From Firmicutes bacterium UBA5493 (lineage in GTDB: Bacteria; Bacillota; Limnochordia; Darwinibacteriales; Darwinibacteriaceae): a stretch of 64,000 nt of DNA. Numbering within the stretch: position 1 is the first letter of the stretch; every line of letters begins with the position of its first letter. The DNA lies in NCBI GenBank assembly GCA_002424045.1, contig DIPH01000015.1, forward strand, positions 70,550 to 134,549, written 5' to 3'. Positions 34,207 through 42,961 of this stretch are shown here, in pieces. The notes under the pieces were generated by a model, which saw only the letters and a program-made list of their open reading frames with translations, was not told where the DNA came from and searched no databases. The position numbers and the translations under genes are program-made.

Positions 34207-34662
34207 CTATAAGGCCGATGGTTTGGCCAACTGAATGCTATGCTTTTCTACCGTCATGGCCATCCTATCTATTTGTTTTCCAATTCTGCCCAGACGATCG
34301 TGGAGAAGATTGTACCCATCAAAGAGGGCTCCATCGTTCTCTTCCATTGCATTTTCCAGCCTGACAATGTCCTGTCGGAGACTTGTTTCAACTCGGGAAA
34401 TCTCCTGACCGAGACTTGTTTCAACTCGGGAAATCTCCTGACCGAGACTTCTTTCAACTCGGGAAATCTCCTGACCTAGGCGGGAAATCTCCTGACCTAG
34501 GCCTAAGACCTCCTGACCGAGATGTGCTTCAACACGGCCCAGGTCTTCACGCAAACCGGTTTCCATCTGATTCATCCGGGCCTCTACCCGCTCAACATTC
34601 GTCTTAACCTGTGTGATATCGTCAGCGATTGTCTTCAGAATATCCATGATTTGATCTTGCAT
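34207..34662 (-). CDS. Coiled-coil protein with 11-residue (hendecad) tandem repeats, unknown function
   Basis: Start trimmed to MQDQIMD (ribosome-binding site GGAAGGAG). Contains repeated SLGQEISRVE(T/R) units encoded by the 33-bp DNA repeat. Confidence 0.55.
   Translation of the reverse strand: MQDQIMDILKTIADDITQVKTNVERVEARMNQMETGLREDLGRVEAHLGQEVLGLGQEISRLGQEISRVERSLGQEISRVETSLGQEISRVETSLRQDIVRLENAMEENDGALFDGYNLLHDRLGRIGKQIDRMAMTVEKHSIQLAKPSAL
34378..34523. repeat. 33-bp tandem DNA repeat (3 near-identical full copies plus 2 partial copies) inside the coiled-coil gene
   Basis: gagacttgtttcaactcgggaaatctcctgacc repeated at 34378, 34411 and 34444 (one mismatch), then truncated copies to about 34523. 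Confidence 0.9.
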
Positions 34663-34724
34663 GATACATACTCCTTCCACAGCGATCCCTGGAATTTCAG
34701 TATACCATGAAAGAGCCATAAGCC

Positions 34725-36107
34725 TCAATCGACTAAGCGAAAACGTGCCGTGAAGTGGCGCAAAATAGGAGGTTCATATTCGAAGGCGATTCCCTTAATT
34801 TCATCTCTCTGAGCGTAGACTTTAGCGATGGAATCTGCAATATAACGCATATGGTTATCTGTGTACACCCTCCTAGGAATGGTTAAGCGCAGAAGCTCGA
34901 GCTCCGACAAACCATCTTCTCCCGTATCAGGGTCACGTCCATAAAGGAGCGAACCAATCTCCACCGCCCGAATACCGCTTTCTACATACAAAGACACAGC
35001 AAAGGCATGGGCAGGATATTGCGTTTTTGGCATGTGGGGTAAGATTTTACCCACGTCCACAAATACAGCATGACCGCCTATTGGCGATTGCACCGGAATA
35101 CCAGCATCCTGCAAGCGTTTACCCAAAAGCCCTACCTGGGAAATGCGCTGGGTCAAATAATCTTCTTCTACGACTTCTTCGAGGCCTATGGCCAAAGCTT
35201 CCATGTCCCGACCGGCCAGGCCCCCATAGGTTGGAAAGCCTTCAAGTGGAACCACCATGGCTTGGCAACGTTGAAAAAGATTTATGTCTTCCCGTACAGC
35301 CAAGACGCCGCCAATATTCACTAAGCCATCCTTCTTGGCGCTCATGGTGAATGCATCGCAATAGGAGAACTGTTCCCGGACGATTTCACGAATACTCTTA
35401 TTGGCATACCCGTCTTCCCGTTCCTTAATGAAATAGGCATTTTCCGCAAAGCGCGCACTGTCCATAACAACTGGAATGTCATATTTCTTCGCCATGGCAT
35501 AGGTTGCCCTAATGTTCGCCATGGAAATCGGCTGACCACCTACACTGTTGCAGGTCACAGTAGTCACAATGGCTGCAATGGAGTCTCGGCCTTTTTCCTG
35601 AATGAACCTCTCCATTGCCTCTAGATCAAAGTTTCCTTTAAAGGGATGCTCCTTGGCTGTATCTAAGGCCTCCGCGGTGATAAAGTTCACCGCTCTTCCA
35701 CGGGCCATCTCAATATGGGCTTTCGTTGTATCAAAGTGCATATTGCCTAAGACATACTGTCCATCCCGTCTAATAAGGAGGGGGAATAAAACCTGCTCAG
35801 CTCCACGCCCTTGATGTGTAGGCATGACGTAGATATGGCCACTGAGGTTTTGAACTGTCTCTTCAAGGTGGTAAAAGTTGCGGCTACCTGCGTAGGATTC
35901 GTCCCCAAGCATCAATCCAGCCCACTGCCTATCACTCATGGCGCCTGTACCACTATCGGTGAGTAAATCGATATAGACTTCATCACTGCGTAATAAAAAC
36001 GGGTTGTAACCCGCCTTTTCTATACACCTTTGGCGTTCTTCCCGAGGTAAGAGCCTGATGGGTTCCACCATCTTAATTTTGTACGGTTCTGGTTGATAGG
36101 ATGTCAT
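34725..36107 (-). CDS. Tryptophanase / tyrosine phenol-lyase family beta-eliminating lyase
   Basis: Start trimmed to [17 protein letters not shown] (ribosome-binding site GAAGGGGAG). PLP-lysine context SMSAKKD and TnaA/Tpl-wide conservation. Confidence 0.85.
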
Positions 36108-36204
36108 GTAAACTCCCCTTCGCATTTTTTTGACGTTCTCTTTACGTATTACTATTAGATTCCTCCGCCCGATTCCCCTTCACAAGTTAGCAAAGATTTC
36201 CGTC

Positions 36205-36233
36205 AAGTTAAAAGGGGCCTTCTAGGGCCCCTT
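36205..36233 (-). terminator. Rho-independent terminator after the Arc-like gene
   Basis: AAGGGGCC-N6-GGCCCCTT perfect hairpin plus U-tract on minus strand, 5 nt after the stop at 36238. Confidence 0.65.
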
Positions 36234-36237
36234 GTGG

Positions 36238-36438
36238 TCATCGATCACTGTCTGCTTGATTTCTGCCAGCACCGGTATGATCCGGTATATACTTGCCGGT
36301 CTTCTTTCTTTGCCGGACACATTCTGTGAGCAAAAACTCAATTTGTCCGTTTACAGATCGAAAATCATCCTCAGCCCAGGCGGCAATCTCCTCATAAAGT
36401 CTCACAGACAAGCGAAGTGGGACTTGCTTCTTGGCCAT
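36238..36438 (-). CDS. Arc/MetJ-type ribbon-helix-helix DNA-binding protein
   Basis: 66 aa. PLRLSVRLYEEIAAWAEDDFRSVNGQIEFLL parallels Arc repressor FNLRWPREVLDLVRKVAEENGRSVNSEIYQRV. Start 2 nt after the SPFH stop. Confidence 0.7.
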   Translation of the reverse strand: MAKKQVPLRLSVRLYEEIAAWAEDDFRSVNGQIEFLLTECVRQRKKTGKYIPDHTGAGRNQADSDR

Positions 36439-36440
36439 CT

Positions 36441-37463
36441 TTAATACAAACTTCCACTATTCACAATAGGCTGGGCGTCTCTATTCCCGCACAAGATGAC
36501 AAGGAGATTCGATACCATGGCCGCCCTACGCTCTTCGTCAAGCTGTACAACGTCGTTTTCACTAAGACTATCAAGAGCCATCTGGACCATGCCCACAGCC
36601 CCATCAACAATCATCTTCCTGGCATCAATGATGGCGCTGGCCTGTTGTCTCTGAAGCATCACCGCGGCAATTTCGGGTGCATAAGCGAGATGTGTGATGC
36701 GAGCTTCAATGATCTCGAGACCTGCGTTCTCCACTTTAGATTGAATCGTCTCCCGAATACGATCCGCTACAACGGCGCTCGAACCCCTCAGACTACCGTC
36801 ATCGGGCAGACCGTCACCGGTGGTGTCCACTCCTGGAGCCACATCATAGGGATAAATGCGGACGATATCCCTTAAGGCACTGTCACATTGCAGCGACAGA
36901 TATTCCTTATAATTGTCTACATTGAAGACTGCCTGCGCCGTATCAATAACCCTCCACATTACGGCTATACCGATCTCTACAGGATTGCCCAAAGCATCGT
37001 TGACCTTCTGTTTGGAATTGCTAAGCGTCATAACCTTCAGGGAGATCTTCTTATTTACCACATTAACCTGCCCCGTGCTTCCCTGACCTGAAAGGATCAC
37101 CTTGGAACCTGCATTGGTATCCACATCCCCGCTTTGGCCCAAACGCGTCTTCGCTGCTGGGTTAACGGCCGACGAGAAAGGATGGACATAGAAGAACCCA
37201 GGTTCTTTCAATGTACCAGTGTAATTTCCGAACAAGGTAAGGACGAGCGCCTCCTGGGGCTTGATGACTTTTAGTCCGAAAAAGGGGATAACCCCCACGA
37301 AAAGTCCAATAATCCCGACAACCAGGGGTAAGGCACCTATACTCAATCCATCGTCTAGCAAGAAGCCTCCCAAAATAACGAGCCCGATCATCCCAAGATA
37401 CAGCAACGAAAACAAAATTAACATGGGCAACCCCGGTTTGGCCTTTAGAATCTTCTCCTCCAT
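36441..37463 (-). CDS. SPFH/band-7 (stomatin/prohibitin-like) membrane protein
   Basis: Two N-terminal TM helices then SPFH domain. Start trimmed to MEEKILK (ribosome-binding site GAGGAGGAA). Confidence 0.8.
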   Translation of the reverse strand: MEEKILKAKPGLPMLILFSLLYLGMIGLVILGGFLLDDGLSIGALPLVVGIIGLFVGVIPFFGLKVIKPQEALVLTLFGNYTGTLKEPGFFYVHPFSSAVNPAAKTRLGQSGDVDTNAGSKVILSGQGSTGQVNVVNKKISLKVMTLSNSKQKVNDALGNPVEIGIAVMWRVIDTAQAVFNVDNYKEYLSLQCDSALRDIVRIYPYDVAPGVDTTGDGLPDDGSLRGSSAVVADRIRETIQSKVENAGLEIIEARITHLAYAPEIAAVMLQRQQASAIIDARKMIVDGAVGMVQMALDSLSENDVVQLDEERRAAMVSNLLVILCGNRDAQPIVNSGSLY

Positions 37464-37487
37464 ACACAATTCCTCCTCACATATATT

Positions 37488-37508
37488 TTGATATTATTAT
37501 GATATCAA
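37488..37508. promoter_or_regulatory. Inverted repeat TTGATAT-N7-ATATCAA in divergent promoter region (candidate operator)
   Basis: Perfect 7-bp arms. Lies between the SPFH start (37463) and the ABC exporter start (37638). Confidence 0.4.
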
Positions 37509-37637
37509 ACCGATATGGGAAATGCAAGCAAAATTAGGAAAAAATGGTTCCCAAACAAGAGGGCGCTTGATTAAAGAAAAAAACGGTGCTATAGTGAATA
37601 AGTGCACATTCTGTAAACCGAAAGGAGGCATCGTAGC

Positions 37638-39419
37638 ATGAAATCCGTACGTATATTATGGAAGTACATGGCCAACAATCGACTATTATATCTTGGAGCC
37701 ATCCTCTCGGTAGGTTTGGCAAGTCTAGCCGCTATCTCCGCACCTTTGGTGATTCGCATCACCATAGATAATGTCATTGGAGATGAACCACTAGTAGCAC
37801 CTCTCTTGGTACGTAGCTTTGTGGAAAACATCGGTCAAGCACTTTGGGTCCCTGGTATAGTGTTGATTGTTATCACCACGTTCCGGGGACTTTTTCTATT
37901 TCTTAGGGGCAGACTGTCTGCCCAGGCTAGTGAGAACATCGCCAAGAACATTCGGGATCGCATCTACAACCACATCCAGAACCTCCCCTATAAATATCAT
38001 AAGGAGGTCGACAGCGGAGATATCATGCAACGATGTACCTCAGACGTGGACACGATTCGCAGATTCTTGGGTGTGCAACTCGTTGAAATGGGTAATGCGC
38101 TATTCATGGTGTTTCTTATCATCAGCATCATGCTCAGTGCTGATCTTCGCATGACATTGCTCTCCATGATCGCAATACCCATTATCTTCACTTTTGCCAT
38201 CGTCTTCTTCATTAAGGTGAAAAGGGCGTTCAGGGAGGCTGACGAAGCGGAGGCTGAACTCACCACAGTACTCCAGGAGAACCTGACCGGGATCCGCGTG
38301 GTGCGAGCCTTTGCCAATCAAGAGTATGAGATCACACGATTTGATGCCAAGAACCAAGTCAACCGCGACAAGCTCTACCGCCTGATTTGGCTTTTGGCCT
38401 GCTATTGGTCTGCCAGTGACTTCCTGGCCTTTCTCCAAATTGGCTTGGTGTTAGTCTCGGGCGCATATTTTGCTGCCCGGGGAGAGATCACCATGGGCAC
38501 CATGGCACTTTTCAGTACCTACATTGGTATGCTGGTCTGGCCCGTTCGTCAGCTTGGACGAGTTCTAACTGACATGGGTAAAGCGCTGGTGGCGGCGGAA
38601 AGACTGCAGGAAGTCTTCGATGAACCGAAGGAAAACCTCCTTGAAAATTTCCAACAGCCTCCTATTACTGGCGAAATAGTCTTCGATAACGTTTCCTTTG
38701 GCTATGAGCCCAATCAGCCGGTGCTGAAGAATTTGAGCTTCACTGTCAAGTCGGGCCAAACAGTGGCTCTCTTGGGACACACTGGTTCTGGTAAGAGTTC
38801 CCTCGTCCATCTCTTGGCCCGCCTTTATGACTACGAAGAAGGGTCCATTACAATGGATGGCATAGAGCTCAAGACCATTGACAAGAAGTGGATGCGCAAA
38901 AATGTTGCTGTAGTTTCCCAAGAGCCCTTCTTGTTTGCCAAGACCATTCGAGAGAACATCACCCTGGCAAGCGGCGATGTGTCCGACGAGGAGCTGTATG
39001 GCATCTGCCAAGAGGCGGCAATTCATGATGTAATCCTAAGTTTCGATCAGGGTTATGAAACCCTAGTGGGTGAACGGGGCGTCTCCGTTTCAGGAGGTCA
39101 AAGGCAGAGAATTGCCATCGCCCGTGCCCTTATTACCCACAGTCCCATTGTGATTTTTGACGATTCTCTAAGTGCGGTAGATACAGAAACAGACGTAGCT
39201 ATTCGTAACGCTCTGGGGAGGCGTTCCAATAGGGCCACCACCTTTTTAATCTCCCACAGAGTCACGAGTCTCTCTGGGGCAGATCTCATCTTGGTTCTGG
39301 ACCACGGAACGATCGTACAGCGAGGTACCCATGAAGAGCTGATGGCCAACGATGGACCGTACGCCCGCATTTGGGAAATACAGAATACACTTGAAGCCGA
39401 GATAACGAAAGCGAGGTGA
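37638..39419 (+). CDS. ABC transporter ATP-binding/permease protein (type-I exporter half-transporter, subunit 1)
   Basis: 593 aa. 6-TM domain plus nucleotide-binding domain with Walker A GHTGSGKS, signature LSGGQRQR, Walker B IVIFDDSLSAVD. Confidence 0.9.
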   Translation: MKSVRILWKYMANNRLLYLGAILSVGLASLAAISAPLVIRITIDNVIGDEPLVAPLLVRSFVENIGQALWVPGIVLIVITTFRGLFLFLRGRLSAQASENIAKNIRDRIYNHIQNLPYKYHKEVDSGDIMQRCTSDVDTIRRFLGVQLVEMGNALFMVFLIISIMLSADLRMTLLSMIAIPIIFTFAIVFFIKVKRAFREADEAEAELTTVLQENLTGIRVVRAFANQEYEITRFDAKNQVNRDKLYRLIWLLACYWSASDFLAFLQIGLVLVSGAYFAARGEITMGTMALFSTYIGMLVWPVRQLGRVLTDMGKALVAAERLQEVFDEPKENLLENFQQPPITGEIVFDNVSFGYEPNQPVLKNLSFTVKSGQTVALLGHTGSGKSSLVHLLARLYDYEEGSITMDGIELKTIDKKWMRKNVAVVSQEPFLFAKTIRENITLASGDVSDEELYGICQEAAIHDVILSFDQGYETLVGERGVSVSGGQRQRIAIARALITHSPIVIFDDSLSAVDTETDVAIRNALGRRSNRATTFLISHRVTSLSGADLILVLDHGTIVQRGTHEELMANDGPYARIWEIQNTLEAEITKAR

Positions 39420-39423
39420 TCCC

Positions 39424-41199
39424 ATGCAACACACACTTGCGCAGGAAGAAATCCACGAAGAGAAGATTGATGTCAAGCTGTGGGCTCAAATCCTGCAGTT
39501 GGCCAAACCCTACAAGCGCTACATTATCTATGCCATGCTGGGAACGGTGGCCATGGCGGGGGGCGACGCCCTCTTTCCCTACATGACGAAAGTAGCCATC
39601 GACCGCTTTGTGGTCCCGCAAACAGTGGAGGGTATCGGCTGGTTTGCTGTGGCCTTTGTTGCCTTAGTTCTAGTGCAAAGTCTCAATGTCTATATCTTCA
39701 TCAATATGGCTGGAAAAGTAGAATCAGGCATCACCTATACGATCCGCCAAGTTGGTTTTGAACACTTACACAAACTCTCCTTTTCATTCTATGACAAAAG
39801 GGCGGCAGGATGGCTCTTGGCCCGCCTTACCAGTGATGTAAACCGTCTGGGAGAGATTGTCTCCTGGAGTCTAATTGACCTTCTGTGGGGCGGAGTGGCC
39901 ATGATTTTTTATTCCATCGTGATGTTCAGTATGAATTGGCGCCTCGCCCTTCTGACAGTGTGCGTGATACCCGTTCTAGCGGTAGTTAGTGTCTACTTTC
40001 AAAAACAGATCTTAAGAGCCTATCGTAAGGTCCGCAGAGTGAACTCTCAGATCACAGGTGCTTTTAGTGAAGGAATTATGGGAGCCACAACCACCAAGAT
40101 TCTAAGCCGCGAAGAGGAAAACTTGAAGGAATTTCAGTCCCTTACTTCTGGGCTACGAGCCTCGAGCATACGGGCGGCCACCTGTTCTGCCCTCTATCTC
40201 CCCATCGTTTTGATGCTTGGCAGCATAGGCACCAGTCTGACGCTCTGGGCCGGGGGGAGTGGCGTGATTGCCGGGACCATTACCTACGGAGTATTGGTGG
40301 CCTTTGTCTCCTACACCATCCAGTTCTTTGAACCTGTGAGGGAAATTGCTCGGATCTTTGCGGAACTCCAAATGGCCCACGCCGCCGCGGAGAGAGTGAT
40401 GGGACTGCTCAACACCGAGCCTGAAATTCAGGATCGCCCAGGATTAAGTGATAAGTGTCCCCATCTGCAAGGTGCGGTGGAATTTGAGAACGTCAGCTTT
40501 GCTTATAACCCCTTAGAACCCGTCTTGGAAGACTTTAATCTCAAGGTCAAACCAGGGCAAACGGTAGCCTTGGTAGGCGAAACAGGCTCAGGGAAGAGCA
40601 CCATTGTCAATTTGGCCTGCCGGTTCTATGAACCTACAAAAGGCCGAGTGCTTATCGATGGAGTGGACTATCGCGACAGACCCCTTTCCTGGTTGCAGAG
40701 GAATTTAGGCTATGTTCTGCAGAGTCCCCACCTCTTTTCAGGAAATATCCGAGAGAACATCCGCTATGGAAATTTAAAGGCCAGCGATGCGGAGGTGGAA
40801 CAGGCCGCGAGGCTTGTGAATGCCCATGACTTCATTGTTAACTTACCCCAAGGTTACGATTCGGAAGTCGGTGAAGGGGGAGGCCTTTTGTCCACCGGGC
40901 AGAAGCAGTTGATTTCCTTTGCCAGGGCTGTCCTGGCTGACCCTAAGATTTTCGTACTCGATGAGGCCACCTCGTCCATCGATACGGAGACCGAAATGTT
41001 GATTCAAGACGCTATCAAGACCGTTCTAGAAGGACGGACCAGTTTTATCATCGCCCATCGCCTTTCCACCGTGCGCTCCGCGGATGTGATCCTCGTTATT
41101 CGAGATGGAAAAGTGCAGGAAAAAGGCAACCATACTGAACTCATGGCTGCCAAAGGATACTATTACCGCCTCTATACCAATCAATTTCTCGAAGGCTAG
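39424..41199 (+). CDS. ABC transporter ATP-binding/permease protein (type-I exporter half-transporter, subunit 2)
   Basis: 591 aa. Walker A GETGSGKS, signature LSTGQKQL, Walker B IFVLDEATSSID. Likely heterodimer partner of the upstream gene. Confidence 0.9.
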   Translation: MQHTLAQEEIHEEKIDVKLWAQILQLAKPYKRYIIYAMLGTVAMAGGDALFPYMTKVAIDRFVVPQTVEGIGWFAVAFVALVLVQSLNVYIFINMAGKVESGITYTIRQVGFEHLHKLSFSFYDKRAAGWLLARLTSDVNRLGEIVSWSLIDLLWGGVAMIFYSIVMFSMNWRLALLTVCVIPVLAVVSVYFQKQILRAYRKVRRVNSQITGAFSEGIMGATTTKILSREEENLKEFQSLTSGLRASSIRAATCSALYLPIVLMLGSIGTSLTLWAGGSGVIAGTITYGVLVAFVSYTIQFFEPVREIARIFAELQMAHAAAERVMGLLNTEPEIQDRPGLSDKCPHLQGAVEFENVSFAYNPLEPVLEDFNLKVKPGQTVALVGETGSGKSTIVNLACRFYEPTKGRVLIDGVDYRDRPLSWLQRNLGYVLQSPHLFSGNIRENIRYGNLKASDAEVEQAARLVNAHDFIVNLPQGYDSEVGEGGGLLSTGQKQLISFARAVLADPKIFVLDEATSSIDTETEMLIQDAIKTVLEGRTSFIIAHRLSTVRSADVILVIRDGKVQEKGNHTELMAAKGYYYRLYTNQFLEG

Positions 41200-41224
41200 G
41201 CCTCCTTAAGGAGGCCTTTTTTCT
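41196..41224. terminator. Bidirectional rho-independent terminator
   Basis: GGCCTCCTT-aa-GGAGGCC hairpin flanked by T/A tracts between convergent genes. Confidence 0.6.
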
Positions 41225-42575
41225 AAGGGATGAGCTCCTGTAGCTCTCGATAGTAGCCTTCCGTTTCTTCAACAGTCTTGGCATTGAAAAACACATAAAG
41301 GTCAGATAGTTGAATTGCAATATAGGGTGGGCTATTTTTATATACGTAGAGTTTACTCTGACCGAAGCCAGTCACGATAAAATTGCCGAGGGAATACTGT
41401 GCAGTCTCCGCGCCATTCATCCTTGTACTACGGGGTAACTCGTTCATCAAAGAGATGTTTTCAACATCCCCTGTAGAGAAAGCAAACCCGTAAAGAGGCG
41501 CCTTTACAATAACCTGACTATCTGTAATCTCCAGAGTATATTGGGCGGTATCGAGGCCGACGAAGAGAAAAAGCACTCCCAAGACCAATAAGCTAACTGC
41601 CGTGATAATCCCATAGTAGAGCAGTTTCCCCTTTTTTGATCCAATGTTAAACGTCTGACCGTAACCTACGCGTTTTTCCACGAGAATCCTCCGATCATGG
41701 GGATTGTTGTAGACCCCACCACGCCAATAGTCGTCCTCATCCACGATCAAAATAGAGTCGGCGCTATTCAAGATGCGATTCTGGCTCCGTCGAATGTGAG
41801 CTGCCATCATGACAACGGACCCGAGAGTTACGAGAGAGATCAAAGCCGCTACAGCACCTTGGCTACCTGTTTCCGAATAACGCAAGAATAGAGCAGAAAA
41901 AAGAAGAAGTAAGCTGTGCACGTTAGCTAATGCGACCCAGCACAGTGTCCACCCTCGAATCGAAAGGCGCGTTATGGCCAGATTAACCTCGGTGTCATCA
42001 CTATAGGCCCGAGCTCGTTCACGTGCTGAAAGCACCCAAAGAAGGTAAAAAAGGAGGGTTTCTCCACAGGCTAAAGCGCCAAAAAAAATGTTGTCCCGAG
42101 AACCCCCCCACACCAAAAGGCCCACTGCTGCCAAGACAGGAGGTAAGAACCACAGCCTGGGAACGGGCATTTTCTCCTTTTCCCGAGAGACAATAAGGTC
42201 AACGCTTACAGTGTTGGTAGCTCCCATGTACCACCCTTCCTGGGCCTTAAGGTCCCTAAGACTTTGGGAATAGGAGCCCAGTATCATATTTCCTCCCAAC
42301 AGGAGAAGACCAAGCCATAGGGTTAAAAGGAGGAAGACTAGGCTAGCCTCCCTAGGTAAGGCGATCAATATCCCCCCCACTAGAGCCGCAAAGAAGAGGA
42401 GCAAGTTCGCCCTCTTATACCTGCTAACGATGTCACGAACTCGAAGATCGCCCTGGACCTCCCTGGGTATGGTTACGCCCAGAATTACATTTTTCTTCGC
42501 AGTTGCTGCCGACTGGAAACTAACAAAAAAGGAAACGGCAATGATTAATAGCGTTGAAGCTAAGAAAAAGGTCAT
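41223..42575 (-). CDS. Polytopic membrane protein of unknown function with C-terminal soluble beta-rich domain
   Basis: 450 aa with multiple TM helices. Start/stop overlaps the upstream GntR gene. Confidence 0.5.
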   Translation of the reverse strand: MTFFLASTLLIIAVSFFVSFQSAATAKKNVILGVTIPREVQGDLRVRDIVSRYKRANLLLFFAALVGGILIALPREASLVFLLLTLWLGLLLLGGNMILGSYSQSLRDLKAQEGWYMGATNTVSVDLIVSREKEKMPVPRLWFLPPVLAAVGLLVWGGSRDNIFFGALACGETLLFYLLWVLSARERARAYSDDTEVNLAITRLSIRGWTLCWVALANVHSLLLLFSALFLRYSETGSQGAVAALISLVTLGSVVMMAAHIRRSQNRILNSADSILIVDEDDYWRGGVYNNPHDRRILVEKRVGYGQTFNIGSKKGKLLYYGIITAVSLLVLGVLFLFVGLDTAQYTLEITDSQVIVKAPLYGFAFSTGDVENISLMNELPRSTRMNGAETAQYSLGNFIVTGFGQSKLYVYKNSPPYIAIQLSDLYVFFNAKTVEETEGYYRELQELIP

Positions 42576-42961
42576 CAGATTTTTTCCCCCTGATCTAGAT
42601 TCTCACAGAGCTGTTCACATGTTTTCATAAACTCGTCCTTGCCCATACCTCGGGCTAAGCCTTCCGCAATTGAGAGGGCTAGTTGCTTCTGCCAATGGCC
42701 GGGAAAATGAGGCTCTGCATCAGCAGAAACCCTAACCTTAGCTCCCTGACGGCGGTCGATTTCAATGAACCCCTGATCTTTCAAGAGCGTATAAGCCTTA
42801 TTGACCGTCATTGCATTTATCCCCAGGTCCTCGGCCAATTGTCGGACACTAGGCAAGCCCTCCCCCGCTTGTAGGCTCCCAGAGGCAATACCCAAGACGA
42901 TGGCATTTCGCAGCTGAAGATAGATGGGCTCTTCCCCAGTCATGTCTAGTGTGATGAGCAT
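42575..42961 (-). CDS. GntR-family transcriptional regulator, YtrA subfamily (short C-terminal domain)
   Basis: 128 aa. GntR wHTH LPSVRQLAEDLGINAMTVNKAY with a short two-helix C-terminus typical of YtrA. Confidence 0.8.
   Translation of the reverse strand: MLITLDMTGEEPIYLQLRNAIVLGIASGSLQAGEGLPSVRQLAEDLGINAMTVNKAYTLLKDQGFIEIDRRQGAKVRVSADAEPHFPGHWQKQLALSIAEGLARGMGKDEFMKTCEQLCENLDQGEKI

Follow-up and report, generated by a model that had tools for sequence, protein, structure and literature searches.

An SPFH membrane-protein gene coupled to an Arc-like ribbon-helix-helix gene: a putative self-repressing operon with a tandem palindromic operator

Ribbon-helix-helix (RHH) regulators such as MetJ, omega (pSM19035) and CopG act as dimers that bind short repeated boxes cooperatively, the boxes of MetJ being 8-bp palindromes in tandem arrays of 2-5. 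In the operator of the P22 Arc repressor the sites are one helical turn (11 bp) apart and overlap the promoter, and the dimers of the Arc tetramer lie on one face of the helix. The operons described for SPFH membrane proteins contain an NfeD partner or a second SPFH subunit, as in HflK/C (PMC2636767; PMC13086221), and SPFH subfamilies 6-12 are without documented members (Hinderhofer 2009, PMC2636767). A survey of phage-shock-protein (PSP) neighbourhoods described contexts with Band-7 and, at the end of another PspA operon, an RHH gene now and then, but not an SPFH-RHH dyad (PMC11237479). Here we describe such a dyad in a 64,000-nucleotide stretch of DNA from Firmicutes bacterium UBA5493 (GenBank assembly GCA_002424045.1, contig DIPH01000015.1, positions 70,550 to 134,549 of the forward strand; the window in what follows), where an SPFH gene is followed by a gene for a small Arc-like RHH protein and preceded by an array of palindromic boxes. 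With a probability of roughly 0.78, we propose from sequence comparison that the two genes form an operon that represses itself, and that the RHH protein is an autorepressor dedicated to controlling the amount of SPFH protein.

The SPFH/Band_7 gene is on the minus strand (36441-37463) and was defined from the list of open reading frames and Pfam as coding for 340 residues from the ATG at 37463. A ribosome-binding site, GAGGAGG (37472-37478, minus strand), is located 8 nt 5' of this ATG, and the alternative start given by the open reading frame tool, TTG at 37469, is less likely. The stop codon of the SPFH gene, TAA (36441-36443), is followed by AG and then by the ATG, at 36438, of the gene for the 66-residue Arc-like RHH protein, the putative autorepressor (36238-36438, minus strand; assigned from the open reading frame list, Pfam and the alignment with Arc). 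The initial annotation of this DNA had reported an SPFH/band-7 gene with an RHH gene starting 2 nt after its stop, and both the coordinates and Pfam confirm it. It had also remarked that the partner is not of the NfeD type; indeed no NfeD partner was found in the operon, in Pfam scans of the genes at 34207-42961 or among the genes called in related loci. The two-gene operon ends at an intrinsic-terminator-like hairpin (36205-36233, minus strand; AAGGGGCC-CUAGAA-GGCCCCUU, then UUAACUU), 5 nt 3' of the RHH stop codon. The initial annotation called this terminator strong. The hairpin is real, GC-rich and 8 bp long (-15.3 kcal/mol, z = -2.3), but its T-run (UUUUAACUU) is short, and for this reason the consensus terminator scan did not list it.

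One genome per species was scanned with the SPFH protein; of the at least 589 relatives that this gave, the analysis of RHH presence covers the best 80. By tblastn an RHH gene is present directly 3' of the SPFH gene in 76 of the 80 loci. An in-frame ATG is found -1 to +6 nt from the SPFH stop in 66/77 loci, with a median gap of 1 nt, and the typical junctions, TAAAATG or TGATG, look like termination-reinitiation coupling. The genes that flank the pair are completely different between lineages, and in Roseburia and another lineage the two genes are paired in entirely different surroundings. Close relatives (SPFH 83% identical) keep the whole neighbourhood, including a pair of ABC exporter genes and an RHH gene that was missed by the gene callers. 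The four loci that lack the RHH gene (L023, L024, L027 and L028, with SPFH stops at about 2728, 6017, 6020 and 6020) come from one subclade ('KPNEALV...'), in which the SPFH gene is intact (72-74% identical) and neither the RHH gene nor the boxes described below are present.

When the 130 nt 5' of the SPFH start were aligned from all loci, a motif emerged, TGATATCA, which is its own reverse complement and recurs every 11 bp (e.g. TGATATCATTTTGATATCA). The number of boxes per locus is 2 (30 loci), 3 (42 loci) or 4 (4 loci), always in the 11-bp register, and the positions of the consensus T-G-A-T-A-T-C-A are each 82-100% conserved. In the window, three such 8-bp palindromic boxes with 11-bp spacing, recognized from the sequence and from the homologous arrays, form the putative operator array at 37489-37518: TGATATTA (37489-37496), TGATATCA as the middle box (37500-37507) and CGATATGG (37511-37518). 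On the coding strand the array reads CATATCG-N4-GATATCA-N4-AATATCA. It is situated in the 174-bp intergenic region between the SPFH gene and the divergent ABC genes (37464-37637), where the initial annotation had noticed a perfect inverted repeat, TTGATAT-N7-ATATCAA. That repeat is exact (37488-37494 and 37502-37508) and extends to 8-bp arms; it now becomes part of the three-box array, being the two promoter-proximal palindromic boxes read together.

The sites were counted by scanning for GATATCA-N4-GATATCA with no more than 2 mismatches within 300 nt 5' of the SPFH gene. Such a two-box site precedes the SPFH gene in 76/76 RHH-positive loci vs 0/4 RHH-negative ones, a distribution that upholds the earlier proposal of an operator-type element. 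In the 64-kb window the pattern occurs only here (4 strand-matches at 2 overlapping sites); shuffled sequences gave a mean of 0.31 matches, and 0/100 shuffles reached 4. The other 1.39 Mb scanned contained only 10 weak two-box strand-hits. These 10 matches, all within +/-5 kb of the 80 loci, were considered as second targets and dismissed as chance, because all of them have 2 mismatches and are located in GC-containing, mostly coding sequence.

The predicted promoter of the SPFH-RHH operon (37499-37527, minus strand) consists of the -35 element TTGCAT (37527-37522), a 17-nt spacer and the extended -10 element TGaTATCAT (37507-37499). This -10 element is inside the middle box, and the inferred transcription start is inside the promoter-distal box. 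The arrangement is a general one, with a TTGACA-like -35 element 16-18 nt 5' of the -10 element within a box in 68/77 loci (spacer of 17 nt in 55). The -35 element is a perfect TTGACA in 48 loci, the -10 hexamer reads TATCAT in 44 loci, and a TG stands in front of the -10 in 60, so one box is predicted to double as the extended -10.

The partner protein was tentatively assigned to the RHH superfamily on threshold-level sequence evidence together with the logic of the operator. The RHH_5 score in Pfam is 26.0 bits (E = 7.9e-6), and a precomputed RHH_5 match is on record for about 60% of the listed homologues. NCBIfam gave nothing for this protein, and matches to ParD_like were weak. When its profile was compared with P22 Arc by hhalign, the alignment (E = 2.5e-4, 33% identity) was in register over the beta-strand (Q-x-x-L-R) and the RSVN turn. 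A profile search of the PDB gave only non-significant matches, with Arc among the top ones. In 49 homologues the invariant residues are K3, K4, Q5, P7, L8, R9, W21, A22, D25, F26, R27, S28, N30, G31, Q32, I33 and E34. The core K-K-x-[FYV]-x-L-R ... W-[AS]-x-D-[DE]-[FL]-R-S-x-N-[GA]-Q can be recognized in all branches, and Arg9 is invariant in every one of them. Conservation stops around residue 50-52, a length that equals that of Arc, and the tail beyond residue 52 or so varies in length and sequence. From the alignment with Arc, Gln5, Pro7 and Arg9 would face the DNA. The Gln and the Arg are kept, that is, two of the three positions that we take to be the base-contacting ones of Arc. The family is large, with about 2000 clusters at 50% identity (E <= 1e-3) and more than 8000 clusters returned at 90% identity.

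Relatives of the RHH protein are named 'Arc family DNA-binding protein' by NCBI. Many records from metagenome-assembled genomes carry the misnomer 'PTS ascorbate transporter subunit IIC' (P0121, P0128, P0130 and others), the Qipengyuania relative (L226, 2213-2404) is labelled 'HicB family antitoxin', and elsewhere the name is 'hypothetical protein'. The gene is also uncalled in several assemblies (e.g. L001, 7023-7208). Current database names for this small protein are thus unreliable.

Judged by homology and motif matches, the unit of SPFH gene, RHH gene and boxes recurs in at least five bacterial phyla, with representatives in Pseudomonadota, Actinomycetota, Deinococcota, Bacteroidota and Bacilli. 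Metagenome contigs were searched blindly for exact TGATATCA-N3-TGATATCA, which gave at least 120 loci, a sample selected by the motif itself. Among the 120 listed loci a SPFH homologue adjoins the site in 61 by hmmsearch (59 by tblastn), and 46 loci gave an RHH homologue. Identity to the SPFH protein of the window is no more than 35-45% for many of the SPFH homologues, which come from contigs of 60-73% G+C. A divergent metagenome RHH protein was then used as query, by which relatives were sampled independently of the motif. It retrieved an 'Arc family DNA binding domain-containing protein' in Hellea (Alphaproteobacteria), Dyella (Gammaproteobacteria) and Acidimicrobiales, the named carriers being Hellea balneolensis, Dyella agri and an Acidimicrobiales genome. 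In 3/3 of these contigs a SPFH gene of 283-294 codons is directly 5' of the RHH gene, and the canonical box pair is found before the SPFH gene. One or two DUF4177 genes (~60 aa) come directly 3' of the pair in H. balneolensis and the Acidimicrobiales genome (L214, 4196-4381; L215, 4205-4390 and 4401-4583; L216, 3054-3432), a third component that is absent from the window and from the Clostridia loci.

Plasmid and phage collections were searched by similarity to the SPFH protein. The SPFH gene, the RHH gene and the canonical two-box site were found together in Deinococcus geothermalis, Parabacteroides distasonis, Prevotella nigrescens, Nonomuraea gerenzanensis, Qipengyuania citrea, Bacillus sp. 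N5-665 and Acetoanaerobium noterae. Three more distant SPFH homologues without an RHH gene (L220, L223 and L224) had no upstream two-box site. The labels of these collections are no evidence of mobility for the module. Several 'plasmid' records are the size of a chromosome (H1, H2 and H15: Nonomuraea, 11.85 Mb; Bacillus sp., 5.5 Mb; Acetoanaerobium, 2.6 Mb), and the records named 'Listeria phage' or 'Enterococcus phage' (H17-H20) are UNVERIFIED_ORG contigs that resemble host DNA, in which the SPFH gene has neither an RHH gene nor the motif.

The same box pair was met outside SPFH loci. In 12/59 SPFH-negative listed metagenome loci it is followed, at 0-21 nt, by a gene for a FitA-like RHH antitoxin (PF22513) and a PIN toxin gene (L094, L106, L145, L146, L152, L154, L170, L186, L196, L198, L201 and L202; in L198, for example, the motif is at 792-810 and the FitA-like gene at 824-1054). 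The position of the site before these operons ties the TGATATCA box type to RHH-encoding, autoregulated operons. A common origin of the two RHH families was considered and rejected on the profile-profile comparison (probability 1.3%). Since that comparison is weak, close homology does not explain the shared box, and one operator box seems to serve two RHH families whose profiles are not close. A promoter layout of the SPFH type (TTGACA, 17 nt, TGATATCAT, then two further boxes) is also found before ABC ATPase genes (L172, motif at 1731, gene at 1752-2516; L192, motif at 1876, gene at 945-1865 on the minus strand) and MBOAT-like membrane acyltransferase genes (L203, motif at 449, gene at 3-428 on the minus strand; L179, motif at 159) in contigs with neither a SPFH nor an RHH gene. 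The RHH regulator of some genomes may act on such genes as well, and because they carry the same promoter and operator layout, it may there control a small regulon for the envelope. Longer head-to-tail arrays of 11-bp units with TGATATCA (e.g. GTGATATCACC repeated, or TGATATCAAAA four times) were seen in unrelated metagenome contigs with no SPFH or RHH gene nearby (L149 at 917, L157 at 2202, L187 at 2413, L210 at 788, L144 at 2013-2053 and L138 at 829); they are candidate iterons or other operators.

The SPFH protein matches Pfam Band_7 (PF01145) over residues 65-282 with E = 3.8e-22 (79.6 bits vs a cutoff of 23.6), and its divergent Dyella orthologue scores 97.5 bits. Two hydrophobic stretches, at about residues 11-36 and 42-64, precede the SPFH domain. 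An AlphaFold2 model has helices at 11-37 and 41-56 with a predicted local distance difference test score (pLDDT) of 84-89, and C-terminal helices at 276-302 and 310-325; the overall mean pLDDT is 54, from a shallow alignment of 75-99% identical sequences. By the positive-inside rule the distribution of charges indicates that the SPFH domain should face the cytoplasm, and by analogy with other SPFH proteins this one probably builds large membrane-bound oligomers. Identity is 68-99% among the Clostridia orthologues and 46-48% vs those of Pseudomonadota and Actinomycetota, relative to which the Bacillota proteins have two insertions. The family search returned more than 8000 clusters at 90% identity, the top matches being at least 75% identical. 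No curated NCBIfam family fits the protein (the best, HflK, at 21 bits vs a cutoff of 159), and a sequence search of the PDB matched no solved structure. It is a distinct SPFH subfamily.

The C-terminus of the SPFH protein (...LCGNRDAQPIVNSGSLY) is invariant, and a stretch ...MVSNLLVVLC....QP..N[ST]GSLY is common to the Bacillota and to the proteobacterial and actinobacterial branches. The ending NSGSLY is found in 70/77 RHH-linked loci, nearly all the others having conservative variants, and it is kept at the amino-acid level while its codons vary synonymously. A Shine-Dalgarno sequence embedded in these codons was considered as the cause of the conservation and rejected, because of this synonymous variation and because an SD-like 4-mer is present in only 40/76 loci. 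Three of the four RHH-less loci have a changed ending (NSGSI, NSGSSI and NSSIPH), which hints at a functional tie between NSGSLY and the RHH protein.

How the operon would work can be proposed as follows. A sigma-A-type promoter with the extended -10 element TGnTATCAT would give one mRNA for the membrane-anchored SPFH scaffold and the RHH protein, the latter being translated by termination-reinitiation coupling. RHH dimers would bind the 8-bp palindromic TGATATCA boxes, each dimer presumably placing its two-stranded beta-ribbon in the major groove, where Arg9 would read the symmetric G/C pair. The boxes are one helical turn (11 bp) apart, so that neighbouring dimers would be on one face of the DNA and could bind cooperatively, and since the array covers the -10 element and the transcription start, its occupancy would block RNA polymerase. 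Encoded on one transcript, the repressor and the SPFH protein would be made at a constant ratio, and the loop would therefore work as a dosage governor for the latter. Neither an inducing signal nor an additional domain of the RHH protein is apparent. The gene order, the coupling, the conservation of the pair and of the boxes, the place of the boxes and their presence strictly together with the RHH gene are direct observations, and from them we infer that the RHH protein binds the boxes, that binding represses and in what stoichiometry it binds.

Several observations count against this proposal. What ties the RHH protein to the boxes is a correlation, and the four RHH-less loci belong to a single subclade, for which one loss in evolution may account. 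In Rhizobium leguminosarum and Bosea sp. the RHH gene comes with GATATC boxes in non-canonical spacing, and one further locus (L219) has the boxes and, after an intervening open reading frame for a small membrane protein, no RHH gene before the end of the contig. The RHH_5 score is exactly at the Pfam cutoff of 26, the probability of the profile match to Arc is 43%, and Arc has an E-value of about 1 in the PDB profile search. The AlphaFold2 monomer of the RHH protein is one long helix (residues 12-47, mean pLDDT 73.6), not strand-helix-helix; this may plausibly be a failure of monomer prediction for an obligate dimer, and the model confirms nothing. In the window itself the -35 element, TTGCAT, is weak and matches the consensus at only 3/6 positions, for which reason the consensus promoter scan did not list the promoter. 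Finally, a pure dosage governor leaves the strong conservation of both proteins unexplained.

Other explanations of the locus must be weighed against autorepression of the SPFH-RHH operon. The boxes could be mere promoter elements or be bound by another factor, a reading that fits poorly because the promoters of the RHH-less orthologues do not have them. The initial annotation had suggested that the RHH protein also controls, through the shared intergenic region, the two ABC half-transporter genes divergent from the SPFH gene (37638-39419 and 39424-41199, plus strand). Both are half-transporters, as that annotation had it, with ABC_membrane and ABC_tran in each by Pfam, and they are context and not part of the module. 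The divergent genes are 174 bp apart in a layout kept in the closest relatives, and the promoter and boxes before the ABC ATPase genes of the unrelated contigs L172 and L192 imply that ABC genes can be targets of this box type somewhere; however, those ABC genes differ in type, being ATPase-only subunits. The expectation that the SPFH, RHH and ABC genes occur together in other genomes held for the SPFH/RHH pair (76/80 loci, and across phyla) but not for the ABC pair, which is next to the SPFH gene in the nearest relatives alone (L001-L004 and L012, SPFH 83-86% identical). The other 75 RHH-carrying loci have unrelated neighbours instead. The best candidate for an ABC promoter, TTGATT-17-TATAGT (37567-37595, plus strand, from the consensus scan), is at least 49 bp from the boxes, which overlap the SPFH -10 element and the transcription-start region instead, and with some 50 bp between them joint control is unsupported. 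The exporter pair is an incidental neighbour, and its control by the RHH protein is very unlikely.

The antitoxin-like role that the initial annotation had offered for the RHH protein, beside a membrane-scaffold protein, is also disfavoured. The SPFH protein would in this case be a membrane-damaging effector held in check by an autoregulating RHH antitoxin, in a toxin-antitoxin or defence system. The tightly coupled, autoregulated two-gene layout in varied genomic contexts would suit such a system, as would the weak ParD_like matches, the 'HicB family antitoxin' label of the Qipengyuania relative and the use of the same box pair before FitA-like RHH/PIN loci, to whose profile, however, the SPFH-linked RHH protein is not close. 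The RHH protein has no conserved toxin-neutralising extension, and four genomes keep an intact SPFH gene after losing the RHH gene and the boxes with it. PADLOC models match neither protein (E <= 0.01), both proteins are very highly conserved, unlike fast-evolving toxin-antitoxin or defence genes, and relatives were found on only 4 of 2.9 million viral contigs. The plasmid matches are mostly to megaplasmids or to chromosomes deposited as plasmids, and 22/23 are non-mobilizable. We consider a toxin-antitoxin or defence function highly improbable. A gated circuit, in which the RHH protein is the repressor and its availability is set by the assembly of the SPFH protein, for instance by a NSGSLY tail that captures or releases it, is less remote, though still unlikely. 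The state of the membrane would thereby be fed back to transcription, in analogy to the partner switching of PspA and PspF. The appeal of the idea lies in the conservation of both proteins, which goes far beyond the needs of a simple regulator and its cargo (SPFH 46-48% identical and the RHH core near-invariant across phyla). The persistence of NSGSLY in 70/77 RHH-linked loci despite synonymous codon variation, its alteration in 3/4 RHH-less loci and the predicted cytoplasmic location of the SPFH domain, in the same compartment as the RHH protein, all point the same way. Against it, nothing in the RHH protein outside the Arc-sized fold is conserved, and the decay of the tail is seen in one subclade. 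It is doubtful that the SPFH protein, the RHH protein and the TGATATCA box are an ancient membrane-to-gene feedback circuit of at least five phyla, in which the assembly state of the SPFH cage sequesters or releases the repressor through the tail and transcription is a direct readout of the membrane; if true, SPFH proteins would have a partner of a new kind and a new logic of signalling.

Two other parts of the window near the operon deserve a brief description. A 173-residue open reading frame (34207-34728, minus strand) overlaps by 4 nt the stop of the upstream gene for a beta-eliminating lyase (tryptophanase-like). It has several near-identical 11-residue repeats, LGQEISRVE[RT]S, and only weak matches of the coiled-coil type (Pfam; ZorA/LmuB in PADLOC). 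Just 3' of the ABC genes, a gene for a GntR-family regulator overlaps by 1 nt the start of a gene for a 450-residue multi-pass membrane protein with weak matches to DUF5808 and to a bacterial PH domain (41223-42575 and 42575-42961, both on the minus strand), and this pair looks like another small operon of a regulator and a membrane protein.

Literature searches combining SPFH with ribbon-helix-helix, Arc, gene neighbourhood or anti-phage terms found no published SPFH-RHH pairing, and a search for the motif string found only primers. As the initial annotation had supposed, the pairing appears to be undescribed. If autorepression of the SPFH-RHH operon is correct, the partner of this SPFH protein is a transcription factor, and its cis-element can be read from the sequence, almost invariant from Clostridia to Bacteroidota, Deinococcota, Actinomycetota and Pseudomonadota. 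A defined operator, a 60-residue protein and a strong promoter would offer an experimental handle on how the dose of an SPFH scaffold is set, and the TGATATCA box can be used as a genome-wide search key for further targets. The compact, strong and apparently portable repressible promoter module might also serve as a genetic part in Clostridia and gut anaerobes.

Compared with the described SPFH operons, such as the SPFH-NfeD pairs (stomatin/PH1511-PH1510, FloA-YqeZ and FloT-YuaF) and HflK/HflC, the locus is similar in being a small conserved operon of a SPFH gene and a dedicated partner gene. It differs in that the partner is a soluble DNA-binding protein and not NfeD, a protease or a second SPFH protein, and in that the operon has a conserved cis-operator. 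FlotP of Bacillus anthracis is likewise a different protein, an NfeD-linked member of SPFH2a.

Among RHH regulators, the likeness to P22 Arc is in the size (about 53-66 residues), in the Q-x-x-L-R strand and RSVN turn, which align in register (33% identity, E = 2.5e-4), and in an operator that again has sites 11 bp apart over the promoter. Unlike those of Arc, however, the boxes of the SPFH-RHH operon are each an 8-bp palindrome, with 2-4 in tandem, and the third contact of Arc, Asn11, is replaced by Pro, Ala or Val in the RHH family. Arc is also a phage immunity gene, whereas the RHH gene is chromosomal, distal in a membrane-protein operon and present across phyla. The tandem palindromic boxes recall those of MetJ, yet their spacing is 11 bp vs 8 bp for MetJ and 7 bp for omega, and in comparison with MetJ, omega and CopG the SPFH-linked RHH protein has no evident co-repressor domain, another box sequence and another regulated gene. 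The FitA-like RHH/PIN operons (VapBC-type) belong to a class known to be autoregulated by its own RHH protein, and the operator half-sites of FitAB are said to be TGCTATCA and TGATAGCA, which would be box-like. FitA binds DNA through an RHH fold (PMC3920265). Our 12 listed metagenome loci of this type have the identical TGATATCA-N3-TGATATCA just 5' of the RHH-encoding operon, and they differ in that the RHH gene comes first and encodes a C-terminal toxin-binding extension, with a PIN nuclease as the partner. In summary, the SPFH-RHH locus combines known kinds, an SPFH operon and an RHH autorepressor, and what is unusual is that regulator, operator and cargo have been conserved together in at least five phyla.

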